Positions 12,871 to 27,487 are shown, numbered from the stretch's first letter. The stretch is DNA of 64,000 nucleotides from Candidatus Thorarchaeota archaeon (GCA_020348985.1 CP070761.1:830324-894323), one strand, 5' to 3'. Notes: generated by a model from the sequence alone, not told the origin. Numbers and translations are program-made.

Positions 12871-14070
12871 TCAAAGACTTGAAAGCGCCTTTGTCTCCAT
12901 GTCGTGGACTTGAGCAAGCAGGTCCCTAATTGGCTCAATGATTCTTGAGAAGTAGGGGACGGCTTCGTCTATAGCTTGTTCCATGAGACTTGGAAGTCTA
13001 TCACTCTGCTTCTTCACTTTGTTCAAAGCCTTCGGACCCTTCTTCTCAAGATCCGAATTGTTTGTCCAGTGGATCTTTCTGATCTCCGCAAGACTATCAT
13101 ACTCGTCCGAAAGAAACGAGTTCGCGATATTTGTCCAAACATCTGAAATCTCTTCAAATTCTGAACTAGCATCCAGAAGATGATCTTCTTCCATCAACTC
13201 TCCGGCTTCTCGCAGGAACGTAGAGTAAATCCGTCTGAAGATGGCACCCCCAGAGCCTCCAGTCTCTATGTAGATATAATGATGTATCATACCTATTAGC
13301 AACCAATTGGGATTGTTTATCATTTTGGGATACTTGGGCAGCATCTCACGCCATTTCAGTATACCATTCAAACCCAGATTCTTGATTGGTGCATTAAACA
13401 TGAAGTCAACATTCTCCTCAATCGCTTTGGGAATCAATCTTCTGAGATCTGGCAGACTCTCTGGCATTGTGAACTGAATCATTTGATTCCGCGCTGGAAA
13501 CGGGTGAAACTTGGAAGCTCGCGCCCTTTGGAGTTGCGTAGCGGGCATCGTAAGTGGTACGTCGAATCTATCTGAGATGTATACAATGTCATCTGGCTCG
13601 TTGATTCCGTAAACAAGGAAGGTGTGTTGTCCGAAGTGGTCGTCCTCACTCGTGCCTAGGTGCGGCAAATAGGCTATGTCCGCACAGACAAAGGCAGGTT
13701 GACCGGTTTTGAGTACAGACTTTAGCTGTTGGTGGGCCCGTTTCGTACTTGAGGACTTCAAGACTGTGAAATCTCCGCCTAGACGCTGAATGGCTCTGCC
13801 TACTAAACCTGGAAACCTGCCACTGTTCATTCCGCCAACAATAGGAGCAAACATCCCCTTCTGAAACCAGTAGACAAATCCCAATCCGGATGCGATTCCG
13901 ACGAACATCTCTTCACTGATCTCATGTCCATAGTGTAACAGCAGTTTCCTAACTGCACTTGTCTGGCAATTGAGGCCGCCGGGCGTATGCTCAAAGTCCA
14001 GCATGATTACGTCGTCTTCTATACCAGCAGGTTCAAACTCCTTCTTCGAGTCTTTCATTCTTTGAATCAC
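12871..14070 (-). CDS. BtrH N-terminal/DUF4872 papain-like protein
   Basis: NCQTSA, SEEMFVGIASGLGFVY, HFGQH.FLVYG, GSGGAIFRRIY. Confidence 0.8.
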   Translation of the reverse strand: MIQRMKDSKKEFEPAGIEDDVIMLDFEHTPGGLNCQTSAVRKLLLHYGHEISEEMFVGIASGLGFVYWFQKGMFAPIVGGMNSGRFPGLVGRAIQRLGGDFTVLKSSSTKRAHQQLKSVLKTGQPAFVCADIAYLPHLGTSEDDHFGQHTFLVYGINEPDDIVYISDRFDVPLTMPATQLQRARASKFHPFPARNQMIQFTMPESLPDLRRLIPKAIEENVDFMFNAPIKNLGLNGILKWREMLPKYPKMINNPNWLLIGMIHHYIYIETGGSGGAIFRRIYSTFLREAGELMEEDHLLDASSEFEEISDVWTNIANSFLSDEYDSLAEIRKIHWTNNSDLEKKGPKALNKVKKQSDRLPSLMEQAIDEAVPYFSRIIEPIRDLLAQVHDMETKALSSL

Positions 14071-14731
14071 CCTTCTTCTTGCTAAACGAATACTTGCGCC
14101 TCTCCTCCTTTATGGATCTGAGAAGAGAGCTTAACCATTCTCTCTCGCATCTTAGAACAGTGAGGGGTCGTTCAAATAGGGCAATAACAACACCGAAGTT
14201 GTCCTGATCTTCAAACTCGGGTCTTCTTCGGGATCCTGATTCTGCTTGTCCTTCGGTGTCCGTTGCTGACTCTATCCTCTCAAAGACCTCGACGTTCCCG
14301 TGTAGGAACCTGATTCGTTCATCAAGACGCCCAATGTACGCTTGGATTGCGCTGACAACCTGGCTTTTCGTCAAGAGTGAACTCCCAGAAAGCCCGAGAT
14401 CAAACTGACTGAAGCGACGAGGCGGATCGCTTAGAAGTCTGACCAGTTCCGTTTCAAGTGTCTGCTTCCCTCGCCTTGTGAGTGAATACACCTTTCTAGA
14501 AGGTCCGAGAGACCCTGTTCCTTCCTTGCTAGCAATTAGTCCCCATTCTTCAAGCTTAGACAGTGCCTTGTATACCGATGACATCTTGATCTCCACCCAA
14601 TTTCGATAACCATGTTCATCGAGTATCTTGTCAATCTCATACCCATACCGGGCACCCCGACCAATCAAGGAGAGAACGGAAATGTAAGTGGGTGCAAGCT
14701 GTTCTGGAGGAGATGATTTCGTTGCAGACAT
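14033..14731 (-). CDS. PadR-family transcriptional regulator
   Basis: YGYEI, SSVYKALSKLEEWGLI, RKVYSLTRRG. Confidence 0.9.
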   Translation of the reverse strand: MSATKSSPPEQLAPTYISVLSLIGRGARYGYEIDKILDEHGYRNWVEIKMSSVYKALSKLEEWGLIASKEGTGSLGPSRKVYSLTRRGKQTLETELVRLLSDPPRRFSQFDLGLSGSSLLTKSQVVSAIQAYIGRLDERIRFLHGNVEVFERIESATDTEGQAESGSRRRPEFEDQDNFGVVIALFERPLTVLRCEREWLSSLLRSIKEERRKYSFSKKKGDSKNERLEEGV

Positions 14732-18001: not shown

Positions 18002-18634
18002 TTGCACGGGAAGACAGATCACAGGGCAGATGTTGGCGAAATACTAAGCCAGGCTTCATGCTTTATCAAGGAATCTCAGTATGACAGAGCGATTAAGGAA
18101 CTGGAGAGAGGCCTAGCCATTGAGCCCGATAACAGGATCTTCTGGGAGGGCGTTGTGGTCTGTAATCTGGGTATGAAGAAGCCCGAGAAGGCGATAGAAG
18201 CTCTCAACCATATCCTCAGGATTGATCCACTGGCAGGACAGATCTGGGGTGACAAAGGCTACCTGCATCTTCTTCTGAATGAGAAGACCGAGGGAATTCA
18301 AGCACTAAAGGAGAGTCTCCGCATAAATCCAAGAAACCCACGCGATTGGCAACTACTTGCAGGCGCCTATGTCTCTGAGGACGAGTGGGAGCTTGCGTTA
18401 GACTGCTATGAGCGGTCTCTTTACCTCGATCCGAACTCGTCTACATCTTGGTACAACTCTGCGGTATGCTACTTCATGCTTGGCGACTATGAAGCTGCAC
18501 TGGTTGCAGTAGAGAATTCGATATCCATAGACCCTTCGCTTGAGTACTTGGCTTCAGAGTGGATTGATATTCTAAGAGATGACATGATAGCACCAGATCT
18601 TGTGACCTACAGTTACGATGAGCCGGCAAGCTAG
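18002..18634 (+). CDS. Tetratricopeptide repeat protein
   Basis: About five TPR units (A..L.P.N...W periodicity). Confidence 0.85.
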   Translation: MHGKTDHRADVGEILSQASCFIKESQYDRAIKELERGLAIEPDNRIFWEGVVVCNLGMKKPEKAIEALNHILRIDPLAGQIWGDKGYLHLLLNEKTEGIQALKESLRINPRNPRDWQLLAGAYVSEDEWELALDCYERSLYLDPNSSTSWYNSAVCYFMLGDYEAALVAVENSISIDPSLEYLASEWIDILRDDMIAPDLVTYSYDEPAS

Positions 18635-18659
18635 CTCCTAGTCTTTGAGTACCTAGGGA

Positions 18660-20594
18660 CTACTTCTCTTCAACAGCGTCCGAATCGTCACCCTCATCTT
18701 CTTCGGGCTCCAGACTGTCCTTCAACAATGCATTCAATTCATTTGTCAAGTCTCGAGTCTGTGACTTCAACTTGAACCGTGTTGCAGTATTGAGTGCCTG
18801 CTGTATAGCTTCAACCAGTCTATCCAATTCTGCCTTCTGTTCGGCACCTTCGGTCATAGAGAAAATTTCCGCCTTTCTTTTTGCCATCACACCCAATAGA
18901 CCTTCAATGGCGGCCAAGGCCTCCTCACGGCTTGTGAAATCCGCCTCAACTTTGTCGTCAGAGGCCTCGATGATTCTTGATATCTGCCCGAAGAGCCCTC
19001 GATATTCATCAAGAGAGGATGACAGAATACCTTCAACTTCACTGTCATCGTCTGCTTCTTTCAACCGTTCTTCTATTTCAACCATGGCCCGCTCGAGGAA
19101 GCCTCTCCGCTCTTCTAGACTCGTCCGTCTCCTCTCCATCCATCGCCACTCACTCCCGATGCTGTGAGTCAAAGCAAGGGCCTGATTTACTTTCTCTTGA
19201 AATTTGCCCAGTTTGGCCTTGGCATCTTCAAGATCTGCTTCCAATCCGTCTGCAATGTGTGAGAGCTGGTAGCTCAGTATATTGTCTGCTTGAGCCTCGG
19301 CAAGGACTCGAGCTTCTTTGAGGGCACGCGCTGCTGCAGTCCACAATGCCTTCACTTCATCATCTGCAGCGGCGGTTCGGCCTTTCATGTCGAGTTCATC
19401 CGAAAGCTGCTCTACTTCTTCACTGAGCTTCTTAATCTCTCCAATCTTGGATCTCAAGAGAGCTCTTCCCAGCCTTGTGTTAAGTTCGGTTGTCAGCCGC
19501 TGACGTTCATCCGGCACTTCCATCAGAGCATGTGTATTGTCAATTAGGAGCTGAAGCGCATTCTCAAACTCTGTGACCGACTCTGGATATTGCGACTGCT
19601 GAAAGAGCTCATCTCCTCGCGCCTGCAGAATCAGTACTTCTTCGAGAACGTCGTACGGCGACGTTCTAAGTAGAGTGGCGCCATAGCCAGAGACTTCCTC
19701 AGCCATTAGGTCGTGTGGACGGTCGTCAAGCATCACTCTGATGATTATTATTCCATCTGAACTTGCAGCGTACACGTACTCGCGGTCAGCAATCGCCCAT
19801 TCAAACTTCACGCCGTTGATCCTGAGCTGACCAACTTCAGTTCCTCGAGTCAAGTCCCATATAGTAAGATAGGATTGAGCAGAAGCAACAACAAGGTATG
19901 GGTATGTAGACCAAATCGATGCTACGGGCACAGATTCCGTGGGAACAAGCGTGTTAACGAGTTTCCATTCTACGCGGTCCCAGATTTTGATTTCACCAGT
20001 GCCCGTACCAATGATTATGTACTCGTTATTTCCTGATGCAACGACGCCTTTCTCCTTGTCTAGTTGCGCAATCTCAGTGGGCGCAGATGTTGTTGCATGT
20101 TTCCATACCACAGGTGCCTCCTTCTTGGCGGAGGTGCAGATCACCTCATCATCTGACCATAGCGTCGTTAAATCGGCCTTGTGCAGCTGCCAACTTGAAG
20201 TCTCATGGGTGTCCTTCTTTATCGACACCAGACGACCTTCGCTAGCCCCAACATAGAAGCGATCACCTTGTAGTGTTGATGTGATGGCCTGATAGGAGAG
20301 TTCAAACCATCCAATCATTCCAAACTCGCCTTTTCTCCAAACGTAGACACGTTTCTCACATGTGGCAAAGACTTGCTCCTCGTCAACATGAACTGCGCTT
20401 GGAGGTGAACTTGTCTCTCCGAGGACAGCAACGGGTTCCCAGTCACTTTTTGAGAAGACCCGTACTCTCCGGTCTCTGCAAGCAGCGTACAGATAGTGCT
20501 CATCGTACGTCAGATGAACGGCGTCAGCCTCCAGGGTGGTCACTATATCTGGTCTAAGAGGTAGCGTTTCATCTCCGGATGCTTGACCAGACAT
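18660..20594 (-). CDS. WD40/beta-propeller + MIT/TPR-like helical bundle + coiled-coil protein
   Basis: N-half WD-like blades (VRVF, VYVW, EIKIWD, LTIWD); central three-helix motif QYPESVTEFENALQLL...RLGRA; helical C-half; acidic tail. Confidence 0.75.
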   Translation of the reverse strand: MSGQASGDETLPLRPDIVTTLEADAVHLTYDEHYLYAACRDRRVRVFSKSDWEPVAVLGETSSPPSAVHVDEEQVFATCEKRVYVWRKGEFGMIGWFELSYQAITSTLQGDRFYVGASEGRLVSIKKDTHETSSWQLHKADLTTLWSDDEVICTSAKKEAPVVWKHATTSAPTEIAQLDKEKGVVASGNNEYIIIGTGTGEIKIWDRVEWKLVNTLVPTESVPVASIWSTYPYLVVASAQSYLTIWDLTRGTEVGQLRINGVKFEWAIADREYVYAASSDGIIIIRVMLDDRPHDLMAEEVSGYGATLLRTSPYDVLEEVLILQARGDELFQQSQYPESVTEFENALQLLIDNTHALMEVPDERQRLTTELNTRLGRALLRSKIGEIKKLSEEVEQLSDELDMKGRTAAADDEVKALWTAAARALKEARVLAEAQADNILSYQLSHIADGLEADLEDAKAKLGKFQEKVNQALALTHSIGSEWRWMERRRTSLEERRGFLERAMVEIEERLKEADDDSEVEGILSSSLDEYRGLFGQISRIIEASDDKVEADFTSREEALAAIEGLLGVMAKRKAEIFSMTEGAEQKAELDRLVEAIQQALNTATRFKLKSQTRDLTNELNALLKDSLEPEEDEGDDSDAVEEK

Positions 20595-20767
20595 GACATC
20601 ATCCCCAGCGCATGGCCATTAGTTCAGAGAAGACGCGTGATGAGGCCTTAAGTCAGTTTCTACGCACCGAAAAATGACACTTTAGAACCATGTTTGAACG
20701 CAGGAATTAGTACCCGCAGAGCTAAATTATGAATGAATATACTAGCTGGTAATAAGTCAGAACAGAG

Positions 20768-20810
20768 TTTAATAGAGGCCCGTTAGATGTCCCATTGCTC
20801 ATTAAGGAGG
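20768..20810 (+). promoter_or_regulatory. Putative TATA box (TTTAATAG) and GGAGG SD of the tubulin-like operon
   Basis: TTTAATAG at 20768-20775; AGGAGG at 20805-20810, 8 nt before an in-frame TTG at 20819. Confidence 0.5.
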
Positions 20811-20818
20811 ATGGTTAT

Positions 20819-23518
20819 TTGACATCAGCTCAAGAATGGAGAAGAAGACTGGATAAGCTCTCAGGATTGAAGGACCATCTTACATCGATAAACCCAGGTC
20901 TCGAAGAACAAGCAGACAGGGTCCTTCGAGGTCTCTATGATATTTACGCTAAGATATCAAAACTAGATAGCGAGCTAGGCAGCACTTCAGGAGTGAGCGT
21001 CCTGAAGAAGAGAAAGATTCAGAGCAGCATAGAATCAGGTCTAGGTGAGCTCGAGAACGAGTTTATGAAGGCGGTTCGTGACCTAGGCGACCTAATGCGA
21101 AAAGAACAGAAGGCGGTTCTTGAAGTACTACCTCAACTACAGAAGATCAAAGAGAAAGAGGCCAAGGCTCTTGTTGGAATCAAGTTTCCGTCAATAGCAG
21201 CAGGAGACATGAAAGATTTCGAGGCGCTTCTGTCCTATGGAGAAGACTTCTCGAAGAGCTACACAGGGCTTCATCAAAGCCTGTCCAGAGAGGTTCAGGA
21301 CAAACTGGATGAAAACAAGAGGACTTTGGAGACATATGAGCGCCATGTGACCATTGACCGAAGCAAAGTGACAACAACTGCGTCCGTGGAGAATGTCATG
21401 GGCTCAACCATTCCCGAGTTGATCACAGTATTCGACAAGTTGAAGTCTGAGACAGAGTTCTTGGACGGCCGCAAAGACGAAGTCAGAAGGATGATTGGAG
21501 TATCACTCATTTCCGAAGTTGAGTCCCTCGAAGCTTCAAGCGACACTGCAGCTAGATTTGGACTCGAATTGCCAATGGACTTCTCAAAGCAACTCAGGAC
21601 CCTGGCTCGCGATGCGGCCAGTGCAACAGATCTAACGACTCTAGTAAGCCTTGAGAATCAGCTGCAGACTTCAATCCTCAAACTGGCAAATATGTTGAGA
21701 GACAGAATCATCAATATCAAACACGAGGTAACCACGAAGATAGTAGAGGGAGGAATCCCAACATCTTCAGATGTTATACCTGAGGCACCACATCTGGCTT
21801 CAGACGAGGAGGATATTGCTAATCTCCTTGCGGCCTACCAGAGAATGGTCGAATGGAGTGGACAAGTCCAGGTTGGACTAAAAGACACGATAGAAGAGGT
21901 GCTTGAGGATATCGAGAGAGCCACAGAACATCCAGAGGATGCTGGAATAAAGGATATTGTTTCAGTGAGGGAGTTCCTTGCTGAAGCTAGAAAGACCCTG
22001 AAGAAAAGCGAAGTCGATGACATGATCAAGACATATCTTCGCGCAAAATCGATGCAGGAAGAGCAAAAGAAGAACATCACTGACAAGATTAGGGCGTACC
22101 TGGCCAGGTTCAACGAGCTGGCAACGTCAGCAGATAGAGTCCTGGACTACGCCCAGCTTTCGAAGAAGGCTCCTAAAGTTGAGGAGCTCGAGGGAGGCAT
22201 CGTCCACCTACTCCAGTCTCTGACGAGTCTGAAGGAAGCTGTTGAAAGTGGAGTAGCGACCTTCAGAGATGCTTGTCAACAAGAGATTGATGCAATTATC
22301 GAGGACCTACAGACGATAAAGCCGGTCTATGCAGAGATTTTCATGCCAATCGTTGTGGACCTTGAGGAGGGCTCGGGCCGGATTGCTAAGATGGACGAAT
22401 TCGCTGAGTTGCGGTCTGAAATGCGCTCGATAAAGGACTCCATACTCGTGAAGGCGAAGGAGGCGCTGGAGAACCTGCGCTATAGACTTGGGGTCAAGAT
22501 AAGATTGGCCGCAGCTAAACTGATGGGCGCAGGCGTGGAAATACCAAAGGAAGTGCAAGAGGCAATCAGCGAACTCAACAATGTAGGAGTGGCAGCTGAG
22601 AATGTCTTCAGCCTGCCTGCAATTGCACGAAAGATGATAGAACTCTACGAGAAGAACATCACTGACAAAGTGATAGGTGCCCTTATTGGAGAAGCACAAG
22701 CGCTTGTGAAATCCTTTGAGCAGGCTACAACCATTGGTGTTGATCTTTCGAAGGAAATGAAGACGCTTCAGAAGATAGTCAGCGATCCACCAGATGAGCT
22801 TGAGGAAGCTGCTGATGCCTTTGACAAAATGAGAGGGCTAACAACCTCCGATGCAGTACAAAAGAAGATCAAAGAACGTGCCAATGAAGCGAACTCTCAG
22901 CTTGAAGAAGCAATCTCGATATTTGAAGCACAAGGTCTCTCTGACTTCGTTTCTCGTTTGCGCAGTCTTCTTGAGAAGGTGCCAGAGCAGCTCGAGAGGG
23001 GCACTACACATGTGAACGAAGCACTTGAGGTTTGCCTAACGTTGGCAACCGTCCAGCAAGAAATGCTTGGCGTGATAAAGGACATCGCCAAGAAGGACGG
23101 AGAGGAACATTCGAAGGATCTCAAGGAAAAGAGTCAACGCTACTCTACTATTGAGAAGGTCTTTGAGAAGCACCCTGATGACTTCAGCAAGATAATCTAC
23201 CCCGTCTCGAGAATCCGGGAGCTAGAAGGACTTCTGGAAGAGGCAGATATGCTCGACCAAGCAATGACATACTTCAACGAGCTGAAGAAGCTTAGAACCG
23301 GTTGGATTGACAAGGCCGAGAAGATGGATGATTGGCACAAAACACTCAGGATGTACTTGACAGGATTTTCACCTGCTGCAAGCGCGGATGACCGTGATAA
23401 ATTCATTGAGGATGCCATCAAAAAGATAAAAGAAACGTTCAGCAAAGAGGACATAAGCACATACCTCTCATGGGCTATCAGAGTCCTTGCTGAAACAATG
23501 GTAGAATCACGCACTTAG
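20819..23518 (+). CDS. Large all-alpha/coiled-coil protein (~900 aa), function unknown
   Basis: E/K/L/A-rich heptad-like composition; no TM and no P-loop seen. Start moved from 20795 to 20819 on the basis of the SD. Confidence 0.8.
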   Translation: MTSAQEWRRRLDKLSGLKDHLTSINPGLEEQADRVLRGLYDIYAKISKLDSELGSTSGVSVLKKRKIQSSIESGLGELENEFMKAVRDLGDLMRKEQKAVLEVLPQLQKIKEKEAKALVGIKFPSIAAGDMKDFEALLSYGEDFSKSYTGLHQSLSREVQDKLDENKRTLETYERHVTIDRSKVTTTASVENVMGSTIPELITVFDKLKSETEFLDGRKDEVRRMIGVSLISEVESLEASSDTAARFGLELPMDFSKQLRTLARDAASATDLTTLVSLENQLQTSILKLANMLRDRIINIKHEVTTKIVEGGIPTSSDVIPEAPHLASDEEDIANLLAAYQRMVEWSGQVQVGLKDTIEEVLEDIERATEHPEDAGIKDIVSVREFLAEARKTLKKSEVDDMIKTYLRAKSMQEEQKKNITDKIRAYLARFNELATSADRVLDYAQLSKKAPKVEELEGGIVHLLQSLTSLKEAVESGVATFRDACQQEIDAIIEDLQTIKPVYAEIFMPIVVDLEEGSGRIAKMDEFAELRSEMRSIKDSILVKAKEALENLRYRLGVKIRLAAAKLMGAGVEIPKEVQEAISELNNVGVAAENVFSLPAIARKMIELYEKNITDKVIGALIGEAQALVKSFEQATTIGVDLSKEMKTLQKIVSDPPDELEEAADAFDKMRGLTTSDAVQKKIKERANEANSQLEEAISIFEAQGLSDFVSRLRSLLEKVPEQLERGTTHVNEALEVCLTLATVQQEMLGVIKDIAKKDGEEHSKDLKEKSQRYSTIEKVFEKHPDDFSKIIYPVSRIRELEGLLEEADMLDQAMTYFNELKKLRTGWIDKAEKMDDWHKTLRMYLTGFSPAASADDRDKFIEDAIKKIKETFSKEDISTYLSWAIRVLAETMVESRT

Positions 23519-23536
23519 ACATGGAGGCAAGAAGAA

Positions 23537-24922
23537 ATGCAGATAGCTGGCTCAAAAGTAGCTGAAGACGAAACGACAAAGGCGGCAGAAGTCTTTGCCA
23601 TCGGAGTGGGCGAATGCGGCTCGAACATCGTGGGATCCTATCTCAAAACAAGCGCAGACAAGAGATTGCCATCGCGTGTTCGCGGATACCTCCTCATGAA
23701 CACCGATAGAGCAGACCTGACAAAGGTGCGCTCAAAGTACGAGATACCGAAGGAAAACACCATGCTCTATGGTGATAGCGAGATTGGTGTTGGTGGCCGG
23801 TTCATGGATGGCTACAACTCCGTCATGGAGTCAAAGGACATCATCTTCGATCAATTGGCCAACCTAGGATTTGAAGGAGTATCAGGATTCTCAATCTTTA
23901 CAAGTCTTGGTGGAGGAACTGGCTGTGGCGGGACACCGGCACTCATTGAATTGCTGAAACAGAGATTCCAGGAAGAGGAAGGCAGAAGGATATTTGTCTA
24001 TGTGATTGGAATCCTGCCTTTCGAGGGCCAATCAAGTGAAGCTCTCAACTCCATATGGGCTGTGTCCAGACTTCTTCGGGCCCAGCTTCAGGAAAGAGGG
24101 GCCGACCTGACTATTCTCCTGTCCAATAGGACCATGCTGAAGAGAATTCTGACTTCTAGAAGAGGCGAGAGCGTGGACTACCTTCAGAGGGAACTCTCAG
24201 TGGACATTGCCGACGTAGATTCTATTCAGACAATGGTACCATCGACTATCGATGAGGGTGGTGAGGCAGAGCTGAGGACTGAGCAAGCGTTTGTCGAGCT
24301 CGTCAATCCACTGGCACTAGAAGTAGTTGAGTCGATGCTATCACCAGGCGTGTATGAGGGCAGCAAGGATGTCTTCCCAACAACGGACCTTGCAGACTAT
24401 GCAAGGAAACTGGACCCGGTTGTTGTTCCTGCACTCTACACGGATGTGGGTTTAATCCCCGACGCTGGCAGTATGCCCAAGCAAATTCGGGCCATGATTG
24501 ACTACGCAGTGAGAGAGTGCTCTTATGCTGATGTCGGAGACCAACCAAATGCTGAAAGTGTCTACTATGTCCTAAGTGGACCTAGAAACATCTCGAAAGC
24601 AGAACATGGGATGCACCTGAAAGAAGCACTTGACAAGTTCATTGCCCCAGGTGCGGCGATAACACCCTGCTATGTACAATACCACACTCCTGAGAGTCCG
24701 ACCAATCTTCTGGTCTTGCTTGGTCTTCCGAAGATTCCTGAGCTGGCTCAGATTATCAACGAAGCCACTCAGCTGGTTAATCTTCACAGCGGAGCGTCCC
24801 CGCTAAAGCAGGGATGGTTTATGAGATCGAAGGGAGTTCCTCGTAAGGAACTTGTGAGTGCCATTGCGGACTTTCGTGAGTTGTTCAGCTACTACATGCA
24901 GCCTTCTGGAGCACAGGAGTAA
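23537..24922 (+). CDS. Divergent tubulin/FtsZ-superfamily GTPase with tubulin-like C-terminal helices
   Basis: T1 GVGECGSNI, T2 NTDRADL, T3 GVGG, signature SLGGGTGCGG, T5 GILPFEG, T7 TTDLAD; C-terminal W..GVPRKELVSAIADFRELFSYY. Confidence 0.92.
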   Translation: MQIAGSKVAEDETTKAAEVFAIGVGECGSNIVGSYLKTSADKRLPSRVRGYLLMNTDRADLTKVRSKYEIPKENTMLYGDSEIGVGGRFMDGYNSVMESKDIIFDQLANLGFEGVSGFSIFTSLGGGTGCGGTPALIELLKQRFQEEEGRRIFVYVIGILPFEGQSSEALNSIWAVSRLLRAQLQERGADLTILLSNRTMLKRILTSRRGESVDYLQRELSVDIADVDSIQTMVPSTIDEGGEAELRTEQAFVELVNPLALEVVESMLSPGVYEGSKDVFPTTDLADYARKLDPVVVPALYTDVGLIPDAGSMPKQIRAMIDYAVRECSYADVGDQPNAESVYYVLSGPRNISKAEHGMHLKEALDKFIAPGAAITPCYVQYHTPESPTNLLVLLGLPKIPELAQIINEATQLVNLHSGASPLKQGWFMRSKGVPRKELVSAIADFRELFSYYMQPSGAQE

Positions 24923-24939
24923 ACCTGGAGGATTGTCCC

Positions 24940-25998
24940 TTGTCTGAATCGATTAATCTCGAAGAGCTCGTGGACAGACTTCTTCTAATTGCTACACTAA
25001 ACTCAACCCTCGTCCATTTCCTCCTGAGCTCGCAGATTGAGGGAAGTGTGGACCCTGACCGGGTTGACTCTCTGACTCAAGGCCTCATGCGAACCAGGAA
25101 ATGGATGGAAGAAGCAACATTGGCAAGCGATGTCCCCGCATCCACAGCCAACATTATGAGTCTAATCGTGAAGCGATTATCTCAGATCGAAAGCCTGCTG
25201 CCCAAGCTCTCAGAGAGAGCAAAGAAGGCCGAGGCTGCCGGCACACCAGCACAGGAGATTCTGTCCATCCTTGAGGGCGATACAACCAATGTGAGACCTG
25301 TGCAATCAGTGGTTGAGTCCACAACAGGAGAAGCAGTCGTTCCGCTTGTGGAGACTGCTCCACCTCCTCCTGTTGAGCCCTACAAGAAGGTAGACGTGGA
25401 GGATGACGAGTTTGGTCTTATTGGCCAGACAGAAAGAATGATTCAACAGTATTCCAATCGATGTCACATCTTGTTGCCGCTCTTCTGGCTAGAGGTTGTG
25501 CGTGAGCTTCACAAATACACGTCAAATTCACCATTTGTGGGAGATGTAATAGAAATCCCGGCAAGGATAGGAGTGCGTATCGCCAAGGGTCTTCTAACTG
25601 AAGCCCCAGGAGCGCGACTTCTTCAGGACTTGGTGAAGAAGCGCCCCGCAGAGAGCTCTCTTGATCCCAATGAGAGTGAACGAATCGAGAGAGCGGTTGC
25701 CAAATACTTCACGGGGGTCGAAGGGATTCTCAAGGGTGACTCACCCAATCCGAATGACAAACTTGGAGAAGCCCAAACTGCGCTTGACGGTTTTGACTGG
25801 GGCGGGCCTGAGCTGGAAAAGAGGATCATCAAGAGAATCAATCAGCAGGTTCAGGAGTCACTTCAGAACGCAGAGTCAGGAACGGATCCACAGCGTCAGG
25901 TGATTCATGCGGAAGTCACGAAGCTTCTATGCAAGCTTCAAGCAGCAATACTTGCTGAACCCCGATTTAGAGAGATTCTAGCTCAGATGAAGCCTTGA
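24940..25998 (+). CDS. Hypothetical helical protein, third gene of the tubulin-like operon
   Basis: GGAGG SD before TTG, 17 bp after the tubulin-like stop; two helical regions joined by a Pro-rich linker. Confidence 0.75.
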   Translation: MSESINLEELVDRLLLIATLNSTLVHFLLSSQIEGSVDPDRVDSLTQGLMRTRKWMEEATLASDVPASTANIMSLIVKRLSQIESLLPKLSERAKKAEAAGTPAQEILSILEGDTTNVRPVQSVVESTTGEAVVPLVETAPPPPVEPYKKVDVEDDEFGLIGQTERMIQQYSNRCHILLPLFWLEVVRELHKYTSNSPFVGDVIEIPARIGVRIAKGLLTEAPGARLLQDLVKKRPAESSLDPNESERIERAVAKYFTGVEGILKGDSPNPNDKLGEAQTALDGFDWGGPELEKRIIKRINQQVQESLQNAESGTDPQRQVIHAEVTKLLCKLQAAILAEPRFREILAQMKP

Positions 25999-26080: not shown

Positions 26081-27487
26081 ATGTCCGGTCTCAAGAAGAT
26101 GCTGAATCCGAGTTCCACAGCAGTTGTCGGTGTCTCCACCTCGAACCCGTTTTCGCCGGGGAATGTGATTTTCCGCAAACTATGCTTCGAGAACGATCTA
26201 ACGACGTATGCTATCAATCCAAAAGGCGGGACAGTCGAAGGGCAGAAAGTCTACAAGTCAATCCCAGAAGCCCCAGGCGACATCGATCTCGTCGTCATCG
26301 CAGTGCCATCAAGGTTCGTTCCGCAGATACTGGAGCAATGTGGAGAAAAGGGTGTCAAGGCAGTCATAGTGGTATCAGGCGGATTTGGGGAAACTGGAGA
26401 ATCTGGGCAGAGCCTTCAGACAGAAATTGTAGAGATTGCTAACTCTCATGGAATCACGATGGTTGGACCAAACTGCATAGGTGTCTTCGTACCGGACACT
26501 GTCGATACTTTCTTTCTTCCTAGCGAACGTGTTGCTCGTCCCAGACGTGGCAATGTAGCAATAGTGTCACAGAGTGGCGGATGGCTTGTTGAGCGCTTGG
26601 AGGAGTTCGCTGAAAGAGATGTGGGAATCGCTGCTGCCATCTCAATTGGGAACTCTGCACAGACCGACGTGACTGACTTCGTGCAATACTTCGGAGATGC
26701 TCCCAAAGTAGATGTCATATTGGCATACATTGAGGGATTTCGAGAGCTTGAAGGACGTAGATTCGTTGAGACGGTTCATTCTGTGGCTCGAAAGAAGCCT
26801 GTTGTTGTTCTCAAGGGTGGCGAATCTGAGGCGGGTCATCGAGCCACACAGAGTCACACTTCATCTCTTGCCGGAGATATGGCTGTAGCTGATGCCGCGT
26901 TTCGGCAGTACGGCGTCCTAAGGGCAGTTGATGAAGATGAGGTCATGGCCTACTCGAAGGTGTTCTCTTTTGGTCTTAGATACATGCATGGTCCCAAGGT
27001 TGGGGTGATGACCGTCAGCGGGGGTCATGGTGTGATTGCTTCGGATGAAGCGTCTTATTACGGTCTTGAGTTCCCTCCCTTCTCGGAAGAGCAACAGCAA
27101 GCTATGCGGGGAGTGATGACCCCGGCCTACCAAGGAATAGCGTCCTTCAGAAACCCATGTGATCTGACTGGTAGTGCTTCGGACATTGACTACGAAAGAG
27201 TGCTTGACAAGATGCTAGAGTTTGACACTATCGATGCCGCGTTGCTGCTCCTGCTTCCCTATGCCCCGGGGATATCGTTACAGATAGGAGCGAGAATCTC
27301 GAATGTAGTGAAGCGTCACAATAAGACAGTAGTAACCTATGTACCCAATCTGGACAAGTATGAAGTGATCATTAGAGGATTTGAGCTGAATGGAATCCCT
27401 GTCGCAGACACAATCGAAGAAGCAGTTCAGATGCTGAATGGAATCAGGAAGCACTGCATGTTTCTTGACAGAGAGGGGGCTAAATAG
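26081..27487 (+). CDS. acdA: NDP-forming acyl-CoA synthetase alpha subunit
   Basis: CoA-binding domain, GPNCIG, SQSGG, SIGN, SHTSSLAG (phospho-His), NPCDLTG. Confidence 0.88.
   Translation: MSGLKKMLNPSSTAVVGVSTSNPFSPGNVIFRKLCFENDLTTYAINPKGGTVEGQKVYKSIPEAPGDIDLVVIAVPSRFVPQILEQCGEKGVKAVIVVSGGFGETGESGQSLQTEIVEIANSHGITMVGPNCIGVFVPDTVDTFFLPSERVARPRRGNVAIVSQSGGWLVERLEEFAERDVGIAAAISIGNSAQTDVTDFVQYFGDAPKVDVILAYIEGFRELEGRRFVETVHSVARKKPVVVLKGGESEAGHRATQSHTSSLAGDMAVADAAFRQYGVLRAVDEDEVMAYSKVFSFGLRYMHGPKVGVMTVSGGHGVIASDEASYYGLEFPPFSEEQQQAMRGVMTPAYQGIASFRNPCDLTGSASDIDYERVLDKMLEFDTIDAALLLLLPYAPGISLQIGARISNVVKRHNKTVVTYVPNLDKYEVIIRGFELNGIPVADTIEEAVQMLNGIRKHCMFLDREGAK

Follow-up and report, generated by a model that had tools for sequence, protein, structure and literature searches.

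A conserved three-gene module around the tubulin-like GTPase Asg.Tub: a candidate cytoskeletal system of Asgard archaea

Introduction

CetZ is an archaeal member of the tubulin superfamily that has a role other than division and that coexists in the cell with FtsZ1 and FtsZ2. A CetZ-like group from Asgard archaea was named Asg.Tub on the basis of four sequences, from Thor SMTZ1-83, Thor AB-25, Heimdall LC-3 and B3-JM-08 (accessions KXH77455.1, OLS30664.1, OLS26264.1 and PWI48967.1; Santana-Molina, del Saz-Navarro & Devos 2023, Front Microbiol, PMC9871819). In that study, the position of the group in the tree was unstable, between CetZ and the tubulins, and its neighbours were described as "unknown and unrelated genes", mostly coiled-coil. 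Non-canonical tubulin-superfamily proteins in Asgard archaea are also mentioned by Brown & Duggin 2023. Here, we describe the Asg.Tub locus in a stretch of 64,000 nucleotides from a Candidatus Thorarchaeota archaeon (GCA_020348985.1 CP070761.1:830324-894323), which is called the window in what follows; positions given without a locus name are counted from its first letter. The GTPase gene (gene 2) is preceded by a gene for a long, helical, predicted rod protein (gene 1) and followed by a gene for a smaller two-domain protein (gene 3). This triad recurs across distant Asgard lineages, and it probably encodes a cytoskeletal system.

No paper characterizing the function of Asg.Tub or of its two partners was found in the literature searched. 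The initial annotation of this DNA proposed the locus as a candidate undescribed one, which does not hold for the GTPase: its family has had the name Asg.Tub in print since 2023, together with a remark on its mostly coiled-coil neighbours. The searched literature does not describe the triad as a fixed unit or its breadth, nor does it describe the two orphan families of partners or the Thorarchaeota-specific additions.

Among the described systems, CetZ (Duggin et al. 2015; 4b45, 4b46 and 3zid) has the solved structures that come closest to the N-terminal GTPase domain of Asg.Tub. However, Asg.Tub is about 70-110 residues longer than these three CetZ chains and has a distinctive, conserved C-terminal half in which no CetZ_C domain is detected; moreover, it has dedicated operon partners, while none is shown for CetZ in the gene-context comparison of PMC9871819. 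In Prosthecobacter, the filament of BtubA and BtubB is stabilized by BtubC, the "bacterial kinesin light chain" (PMC9871819). As at the Asg.Tub locus, genes for a tubulin-superfamily polymer and an all-helical accessory protein are combined in one operon, but BtubA and BtubB, which contain a Tubulin_C domain, count as true tubulins and BtubC belongs to the TPR proteins, whereas Asg.Tub lacks Tubulin_C and its partners, a rod of about 900 residues or more and a two-domain protein, have no detectable relation to BtubC. The TubZRC and PhuZ systems are likewise small operons around a divergent tubulin-like GTPase; in contrast to these, the Asg.Tub triad displays neither a TubZ C-terminal match, nor a DNA-binding-like partner, nor a mobile-element context. 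Finally, OdinTubulin and the AtubA/B proteins of Lokiarchaeum ossiferum belong to the same phylum and superfamily as Asg.Tub and give weak sequence matches to it.

A conserved triad in distant Asgard lineages

The distribution of the family was surveyed in 400 Asgard genomes, one per species, with the window GTPase (P0002) as query; G-, L- and f-numbers refer to genomes, loci and GTDB families. Related genomes are not independent samples, and the tallies given here describe distribution, not statistics. Whereas the group was defined from four sequences in PMC9871819, it is now found in 125 of the 400 genomes. The GTPase is present in 75 of the 85 genomes of the Thorarchaeota family f1, in 20 of 22 in f11, 15 of 19 in f14 and in all members of f30 (5/5) and f6 (4/4), and this query recovers it in none of the genomes of f22 (0/135) and f8 (0/31). 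Full-length homologues, with identities of 49-96%, carry Thor-, Hod-, Heimdall- and Hermodarchaeota and Asgardarchaeia labels, and record titles extend the family to Sif- and Borrarchaeota. True tubulins, recognized by their Tubulin_C domain, occur in 8 of the 400 genomes (G047, G138, G298-G299, G301-G304); these fall in four GTDB families (f10, f21, f28 and f29), none of which has Asg.Tub in the sample. In this sample of the phylum, Asg.Tub is thus far commoner than true tubulin (125 versus 8 genomes). One of the true-tubulin genomes, G138, contains four copies.

The gene context, seen as a set of unrelated genes in PMC9871819, resolves here into a fixed three-gene module with two orphan families. 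In pairwise BLASTP comparisons of the flanking genes from Heimdall, Asgardarchaeia and Hermod-type loci, the rod protein gives E (expectation) values from 6e-25 to 1e-119 and the third protein from 4e-23 to 5e-48. A scan of 23 hand-picked distant loci by open reading frames (ORFs) and BLASTP yielded the full triad in 20, belonging to more than nine GTDB families; of the other three, one lies at the end of a contig and two belong to a second paralogue. In a further set of 80 loci, where the rod was counted if at least 2.9 kb of upstream sequence was available and the third gene if at least 1.2 kb was available downstream, all 63 loci that qualified for the rod have its gene directly upstream of the GTPase, and all 76 that qualified for the third gene have it downstream. 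The genes are separated by median gaps of 12-20 bp, or overlap, and all-against-all clustering of these loci revealed no other gene that is conserved across lineages. Because it recurs in every related locus with enough flank, the three-gene order is more than chance. Tight spacing and conservation across Thor-, Hermod-, Sif-, Borr- and Hod-/Heimdallarchaeota and other lineages mark the GTPase and its two flanking genes as a module. Synteny across Asgard genomes had been put forward in the initial annotation as a check on its proposal, and the neighbours turn out to be conserved with the GTPase, which is the opposite of a refuting result.

A tree of the GTPase was computed by a quick maximum-likelihood search, in which FtsZ served as the sole outgroup and long-branch warnings were raised. 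It follows taxonomy, with clades of Thor plus f2, Hermod, Sif/Borr, Hod/Heimdall and f3/f5/f6, and a very long branch separates the Asg.Tub family from the FtsZs encoded in the same genome. A search of 2.9 million viral contigs yielded no relatives of the GTPase. Taken together, the agreement with taxonomy and the lack of viral relatives argue for vertical inheritance from an early Asgard ancestor, followed by losses. Two records stand apart from their titles: L087 is titled Hermodarchaeota, yet its GTPase shares 85% identity with the query and groups within the Thorarchaeota clade, and L134 is titled Odinarchaeota, yet its GTPase lies inside the Hermodarchaeota clade. Both are probably mislabelled or mis-binned material from metagenome-assembled genomes.

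Eight loci of several lineages have a gene for a small GTPase of the Ras/Arf family at a distance of no more than 8 kb from the triad or, in the case of L062, from a lone homologue of the third gene (Table 1). These genes are found just upstream of the triad in L003 and L040, and are Arf-like in L001 and Ras/Rab-like in L003. A small GTPase was considered as a fourth component and rejected, in view of the different subfamilies and the varying distances. The proximity may be due to chance, because Asgard genomes are rich in such genes and the subfamilies differ.

The Asg.Tub GTPase

The product of gene 2 matches the Pfam Tubulin family (PF00091) over residues 18-202 with 68.1 bits (cut-off 33, E 1.6e-18), and comparison with the named sequences places it in the Asg.Tub family. 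It is 87% identical to the GTPase of Thor AB_25 (locus L098) and 52% identical, over 98% of the query, to the Heimdall LC_3 protein P0120, with which it aligns over the full length including the C-terminal half; this LC_3 homologue carries a CetZ annotation. The supplement sequences KXH77455.1 and PWI48967.1 contain the same motifs.

In an alignment of 26 sequences, reaching down to about 43% identity, the family displays 56% mean column identity and strong conservation along its whole length. The T4 loop GGGTGCG, in which Cys replaces the usual Ser or Thr, is invariant (residues 125-132 read GGGTGCGG), as is the T1-type motif GxGECGxN. Further invariant motifs are LLSN and TTDLADY, the latter with D284 and D287; by position, the invariant residues comprise G23, G25, E26, G28 and N30, G125-G131, N197, D284 and D287. 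LLSN makes up the T6 region, and a variable insert of about 45 residues comes after it. The T7 loop reads NVDFAD in FtsZ and NVDLTEF in alpha-tubulin. In the published alignment, TTDLADY of Asg.Tub is aligned with the tubulin-type row NTDLSEY, and judged from this alignment it corresponds to the T7 catalytic loop.

Residues 205-461 have no match to any Pfam family, including FtsZ_C, Tubulin_C, CetZ_C and the TubZ C-terminal families. FtsZ_C (PF12327) has no Pfam match in the protein, and the FtsZ equivalog model TIGR00065 yields 30.4 bits, far short of its cut-off of 295. CetZ_C (PF21011) was detected neither in residues 205-461, with E up to 1, nor in the whole genome, although the Haloferax volcanii control was positive, and Tubulin_C (PF03953) was found neither in the GTPase nor in the genome, although the same model picks up the eight Asgard genomes mentioned above. 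By its C-terminal domain as read from these family models, Asg.Tub is not a canonical CetZ, FtsZ, tubulin or TubZ. The genome also encodes two canonical FtsZs with Tubulin and FtsZ_C domains.

When the profile of the 26 family members is searched against the PDB, CetZ comes first (4b46, E 1e-13; 3zid, 9e-9; 4b45, 6e-8), followed by beta- and gamma-tubulins at about 1e-6 and then by OdinTubulin (7evb, 6e-6) and AtubA (9f6t, 2e-5). All of these matches are confined to the N-terminal domain. The nearest clusters in a protein language model are also CetZ-like, with some TubZ-type clusters among the neighbours. The tubulin-like GTPase with a GGGTG(C)G loop that was noticed in the initial annotation thus stands as a separate branch of the tubulin superfamily, with GTP-binding and T7 motifs intact.

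Two orphan partner families

The protein encoded by gene 1 has no match to a Pfam or NCBIfam family. Its AlphaFold2 model, built from an alignment of 34 sequences, has a mean predicted local distance difference test (pLDDT) of 86.6 and a predicted template modelling score (pTM) of 0.41, and comprises some 30 helices, each 20-45 residues long; a pTM this low fits with an elongated chain of helical bundles. According to this model, the protein is an all-helical rod of serial helical bundles. It has an isoelectric point of 5.1 and is evenly conserved along its length. Foldseek, VIA-align and PDB profile searches for relatives gave nothing above background, and a protein Atlas search returned only its own Thorarchaeota cluster; the family is an orphan family restricted to Asgard archaea.

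Several candidate relationships of the rod were considered. One to the gamma-tubulin-complex proteins (GCP/GRIP) is not supported: there is no Pfam match with E up to 0.1 and none among the fold matches, in a search with the whole 899-residue model that may miss single domains. The likenesses to PRC1 (4l3i; probability 0.47, E 0.27, Z 7.5 at a root-mean-square deviation of 30), to the dynein tail (E 0.04) and, for the first approximately 150 residues, to BAR and I-BAR bundles (Z 7.4-8.1) are all below the stated noise for helical proteins and were set aside. Across triads, the rod protein varies in size from 870 to 1,585 residues, and in the triads that contain L059:7001-8809 and L061:782-5539 it reaches 1,311 and 1,585 residues. 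In one f11 genome (L049:9583-17156), two large helical proteins of 1,202 and 1,173 residues are encoded in tandem upstream of the GTPase; BLAST with the window rod (P0001) picked up the distal one only, and the tandem may be a duplication of the rod gene.

The third protein is predicted by AlphaFold2 (pLDDT 82 for the whole chain, more than 90 for the C-terminal domain) to consist of an N-terminal three-helix bundle (residues 7-111) and a C-terminal helical domain (approximately 150-352), connected by a disordered, Pro-rich and acidic linker (approximately 104-148). Its invariant residues are D156, P180, P223, L227, G288, E293, R295 and K351, nearly all of which sit in the C-terminal domain. 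No relatives were found in PDB, Atlas or sequence searches. By fold, only the generic N-terminal three-helix bundle is matched (Z up to 10.5), the best scores being a Foldseek E of 0.2 and an Atlas TM-score of at most 0.31, and the C-terminal domain has no usable match in the protein Atlas. An exhaustive profile search of 1.84 billion representative proteins delimits the family to 53 clusters; three of its distant matches were looked up, two of which are in triads and one of which is solo. The third protein, too, represents an orphan Asgard family. Its size across loci is about 290-600 residues, and the homologue at L059:7001-8809, with 602 residues, has an N-terminal extension of about 285 residues. 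The initial annotation had described the two partners as a helical protein of about 900 residues and a 352-residue protein without a recognized family, and both descriptions agree with the all-helical 899-residue model and with the 352 residues without relatives by fold or sequence.

A putative filament system and its alternatives

The interpretation that we favour, and consider rather probable, is that the triad constitutes an Asgard-specific, vertically inherited cytoskeletal module of three genes, in which a GTP-driven filament, a rod-like scaffold and an adaptor function beside the two canonical FtsZs. Judging from its motifs, Asg.Tub would polymerize head to tail on GTP, each subunit using its T7 aspartates to activate hydrolysis in the adjoining one, by analogy with FtsZ, CetZ and tubulin. 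The rod protein may act as a scaffold, spacer or cross-linker along or between protofilaments. The third protein could dock on the filament or on the rod by means of its conserved C-terminal domain, while the variable N-terminal bundle with its flexible linker would serve either to contact a lineage-specific target or to control assembly. With translation of the three genes tightly coupled, the stoichiometry would be fixed. Because FtsZ1/FtsZ2-type genes are present, the role of the system is most likely in cell shape or internal organization and not in the primary divisome. A complex prediction for the GTPase with residues 140-352 of the third protein, run without controls, gave a score of 0.00, which is no evidence either way.

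Some observations weigh against such a module. The fold of the C-terminal domain of the GTPase and the geometry of its T7 loop are predicted from sequence alone. Neither partner resembles a known filament-binding protein in fold and PDB profile searches, and for this reason their roles are deduced only from gene order. Furthermore, the three genes are not strictly inseparable. Two f11 genomes of the Hod-/Heimdallarchaeota type (G067 and G072) contain a second pair, consisting of a rod of about 1,140 residues and a GTPase that is 50-51% identical to P0002 (L045:7980-12740 and L048:4555-9326), which represents a deeply branching paralogue; there is no recognizable third gene and the next gene is a convergent ORF of 740 residues. 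The adaptor of the main locus may serve this pair as well. Conversely, L062:7001-8038 is a lone homologue of the third gene (345 residues, E 2.5e-28 to the family profile), without rod or GTPase. Its neighbours, MoCF_biosynth and CDC48 genes, are those that also border the complete triad of Heimdall-group loci, for example L001, and it looks like the result of the loss of two of the three genes.

The products of the triad could also share a pathway without the partners binding an Asg.Tub filament; for example, the rod might form a polymer of its own, reminiscent of intermediate filaments or crescentin, or a membrane coat, with the GTPase as a regulator or nucleator. The great length of the rod, its even conservation and its serial bundles would suit such a role, no tubulin-binding fold is recognized in either partner, and the beginning of the rod has a weak, non-significant BAR-type likeness. 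Yet the BAR-like scores are under the noise level, and the invariant T7 aspartates and GTP-binding loops of Asg.Tub fit a self-assembling GTPase better than a pure switch, so that we regard this explanation as unlikely. It is even harder to see Asg.Tub as a divergent CetZ orthologue that controls cell shape like haloarchaeal CetZ1, with incidental neighbours. In favour of this are the CetZ structures as best PDB matches, CetZ-like clusters as nearest neighbours in the language model, the CetZ annotation of the LC_3 homologue and the description of the group as CetZ-like in PMC9871819; nevertheless, the similarity is limited to the N-terminal GTPase domain, CetZ_C goes undetected in the protein and the genome with a model that recognizes the Haloferax control, and the gene context differs from that of CetZ (PMC9871819). 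Since they are conserved in every locus with enough flank, the neighbours are not incidental either, and an orthologue of this kind appears improbable.

A GTPase that does not polymerize, that is, a Misato-like tubulin-fold switch or pseudo-enzyme acting as a monomer or dimer in a complex with both partners, would be in line with LLSN in place of the usual DN in the T6 region, with the variable insert behind it and with a C-terminal half that matches no known family. On the other hand, the invariance of T1, T4 and T7 down to the most distant aligned members is the pattern expected under selection for polymerization-coupled hydrolysis, which makes a mere switch very improbable. The least credible alternative, to which we attach hardly any weight, is a DNA-segregation or mobile-element positioning system of the TubZ/PhuZ kind that has settled in Asgard chromosomes. 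Small operons with a tubulin-like GTPase and accessory proteins are typical of TubZRC and PhuZ, and TubZ-type clusters occur among the language-model neighbours of Asg.Tub. However, the protein has no match to a TubZ C-terminal family, both partners are acidic and all-helical instead of DNA-binding-like, there are no relatives on viral contigs, the tree follows host taxonomy and the flanking genes are ordinary chromosomal ones.

Organization of the locus and neighbouring genes

The features of the locus are listed in Table 1. The spacers measure 18 bp between genes 1 and 2 and 17 bp between genes 2 and 3, and all three genes have the same orientation. The likely true start of gene 1 is TTG 20819, in frame with TTG 20795 and with AAGGAGG at 20804-20810, 8 nt ahead; the resulting form of 899 residues is preferred because it matches the 899-residue homologue P0248 and an ESM Atlas record starting at residue 9. 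Gene 2 has a Shine-Dalgarno site GGAGG at 23522-23526, 10 nt ahead of ATG 23537, and gene 3 has GGAGG 9 nt ahead of TTG 24940. A TATA-like sequence, TTTAATA, is present at 20768-20774, approximately 45-51 nt upstream of TTG 20819, and from the typical archaeal TATA-to-start spacing it is the putative operon promoter. The next gene downstream, for a coenzyme A (CoA) ligase, begins at 26081 after a gap of 82 bp with an A/T-rich box of its own; this gap and box suggest that the triad is transcribed as a unit of its own. Each of the three proteins is acidic and without transmembrane segments. In a search of public runs, the locus sequence was matched only in sediment-type DNA metagenomes.

Table 1. 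Features of the Asg.Tub locus in the window, and Ras/Arf-family genes near triads (L062: near the lone third-gene homologue) in other loci
Feature	Position	Strand	Basis
TPR-repeat protein, 210 aa	18002-18634	+	Pfam TPR_1, E 1.9e-27
Protein with N-terminal WD40 beta-propeller (~residues 1-290) and C-terminal helical half, 644 aa	18660-20594	-	Pfam
Divergent intergenic region with TATA-like box and Shine-Dalgarno site	20595-20818	.	Read from sequence
Gene 1, acidic all-helical rod protein (predicted), 899 aa	20819-23518	+	AlphaFold2 model; ORF opens at TTG 20795
Gene 2, Asg.Tub tubulin/FtsZ-superfamily GTPase, 461 aa	23537-24922	+	Pfam PF00091
Gene 3, two-domain protein (predicted) of an orphan family, 352 aa	24940-25998	+	AlphaFold2 model
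Ras/Arf gene	L001:102-1037		
Ras/Arf gene	L003:4532-5113		
Ras/Arf gene	L040:3184-3771		
Ras/Arf gene	L044:11-859		
Ras/Arf gene	L046:16586-17119		
Ras/Arf gene	L047:16480-17307		
Ras/Arf gene	L061:1-102		
Ras/Arf gene	L062:916-1524		

Upstream of the triad, across a divergent gap of 200-224 bp, lies a WD40 gene, with a TPR gene beyond it. The WD40 gene matches several beta-propeller Pfam families (E 1e-8 to 1e-5), and the C-terminal half of its product has only weak TPR matches in Pfam (TPR_11, E 0.003). No MIT domain was found by Pfam, and the best value in the PDB sequence search was E 0.32. With enough upstream flank, the WD40 gene is adjacent in 35 of 42 Thor-type loci and a TPR homologue is found at the same position in 38 of 42, as against 0 of 14 non-Thor loci for each. 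Full-length WD40-helical homologues occur in 67 of the 85 f1 genomes and in no other family, where partial propeller matches with 23-28% identity are found instead, and two Thorarchaeota genera are without the WD40 gene while the triad is kept. In the mechanism proposed above, the divergent WD40-helical protein and the TPR protein would have joined the locus in Thorarchaeota as lineage-specific accessories; they may, however, merely be stable neighbours.

Further genes flanking the locus encode a P-type ATPase, a PadR regulator, a CoA ligase and a flavin mononucleotide (FMN) dehydrogenase, and no neighbours of the secE/nusG/sepF type are present among the ORFs annotated between 12.8 and 29.7 kb. 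Apparently unrelated to the locus are a BtrH_N/DUF4872 protein (399 residues) and a PadR-family regulator (232 residues), encoded on the minus strand at 12871-14731 of the window, upstream of the P-type ATPase, by genes with a 38-bp overlap. As to the layout given in the initial annotation, the coordinates and spacers bear out three co-oriented genes, 17-18 bp apart, each with a GGAGG-type Shine-Dalgarno site; Pfam agrees with a WD40 gene that diverges upstream and a TPR gene beyond it; and the usual neighbours of archaeal ftsZ (secE/nusG, sepF) are indeed missing from the annotated ORFs. The label "MIT-like" finds no support in the Pfam and PDB sequence searches, and the propeller-type regulator that had been made part of the system belongs to the Thorarchaeota version of the locus only.

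Implications

Attention has so far gone mainly to the true tubulins, which are rare, while Asg.Tub is far commoner, highly conserved and accompanied by two conserved partners. On a more far-reaching view, which is an outside chance at present, the triad would be an ancient Asgard cytoskeletal machine that predates the split between the Heimdall group and the Thor/Hermod group. Its polymer would branch between CetZ and true tubulin, with the rod and the adaptor prokaryotes would have their first case of filament-binding factors dedicated to such a polymer and resembling microtubule-associated proteins, and the whole would shape cells or organize the cytoplasm where no true tubulin is detected.

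Asgard archaea are the closest archaeal relatives of eukaryotes, and the triad is probably an unexplored filament system in these organisms. It offers a set of three proteins that is open to expression and reconstitution, by which it could be seen how a polymer that is neither FtsZ nor tubulin functions with dedicated partners. In this way, the triad bears on the question of whether tubulin-family filaments regulated by accessory proteins existed before eukaryotes.

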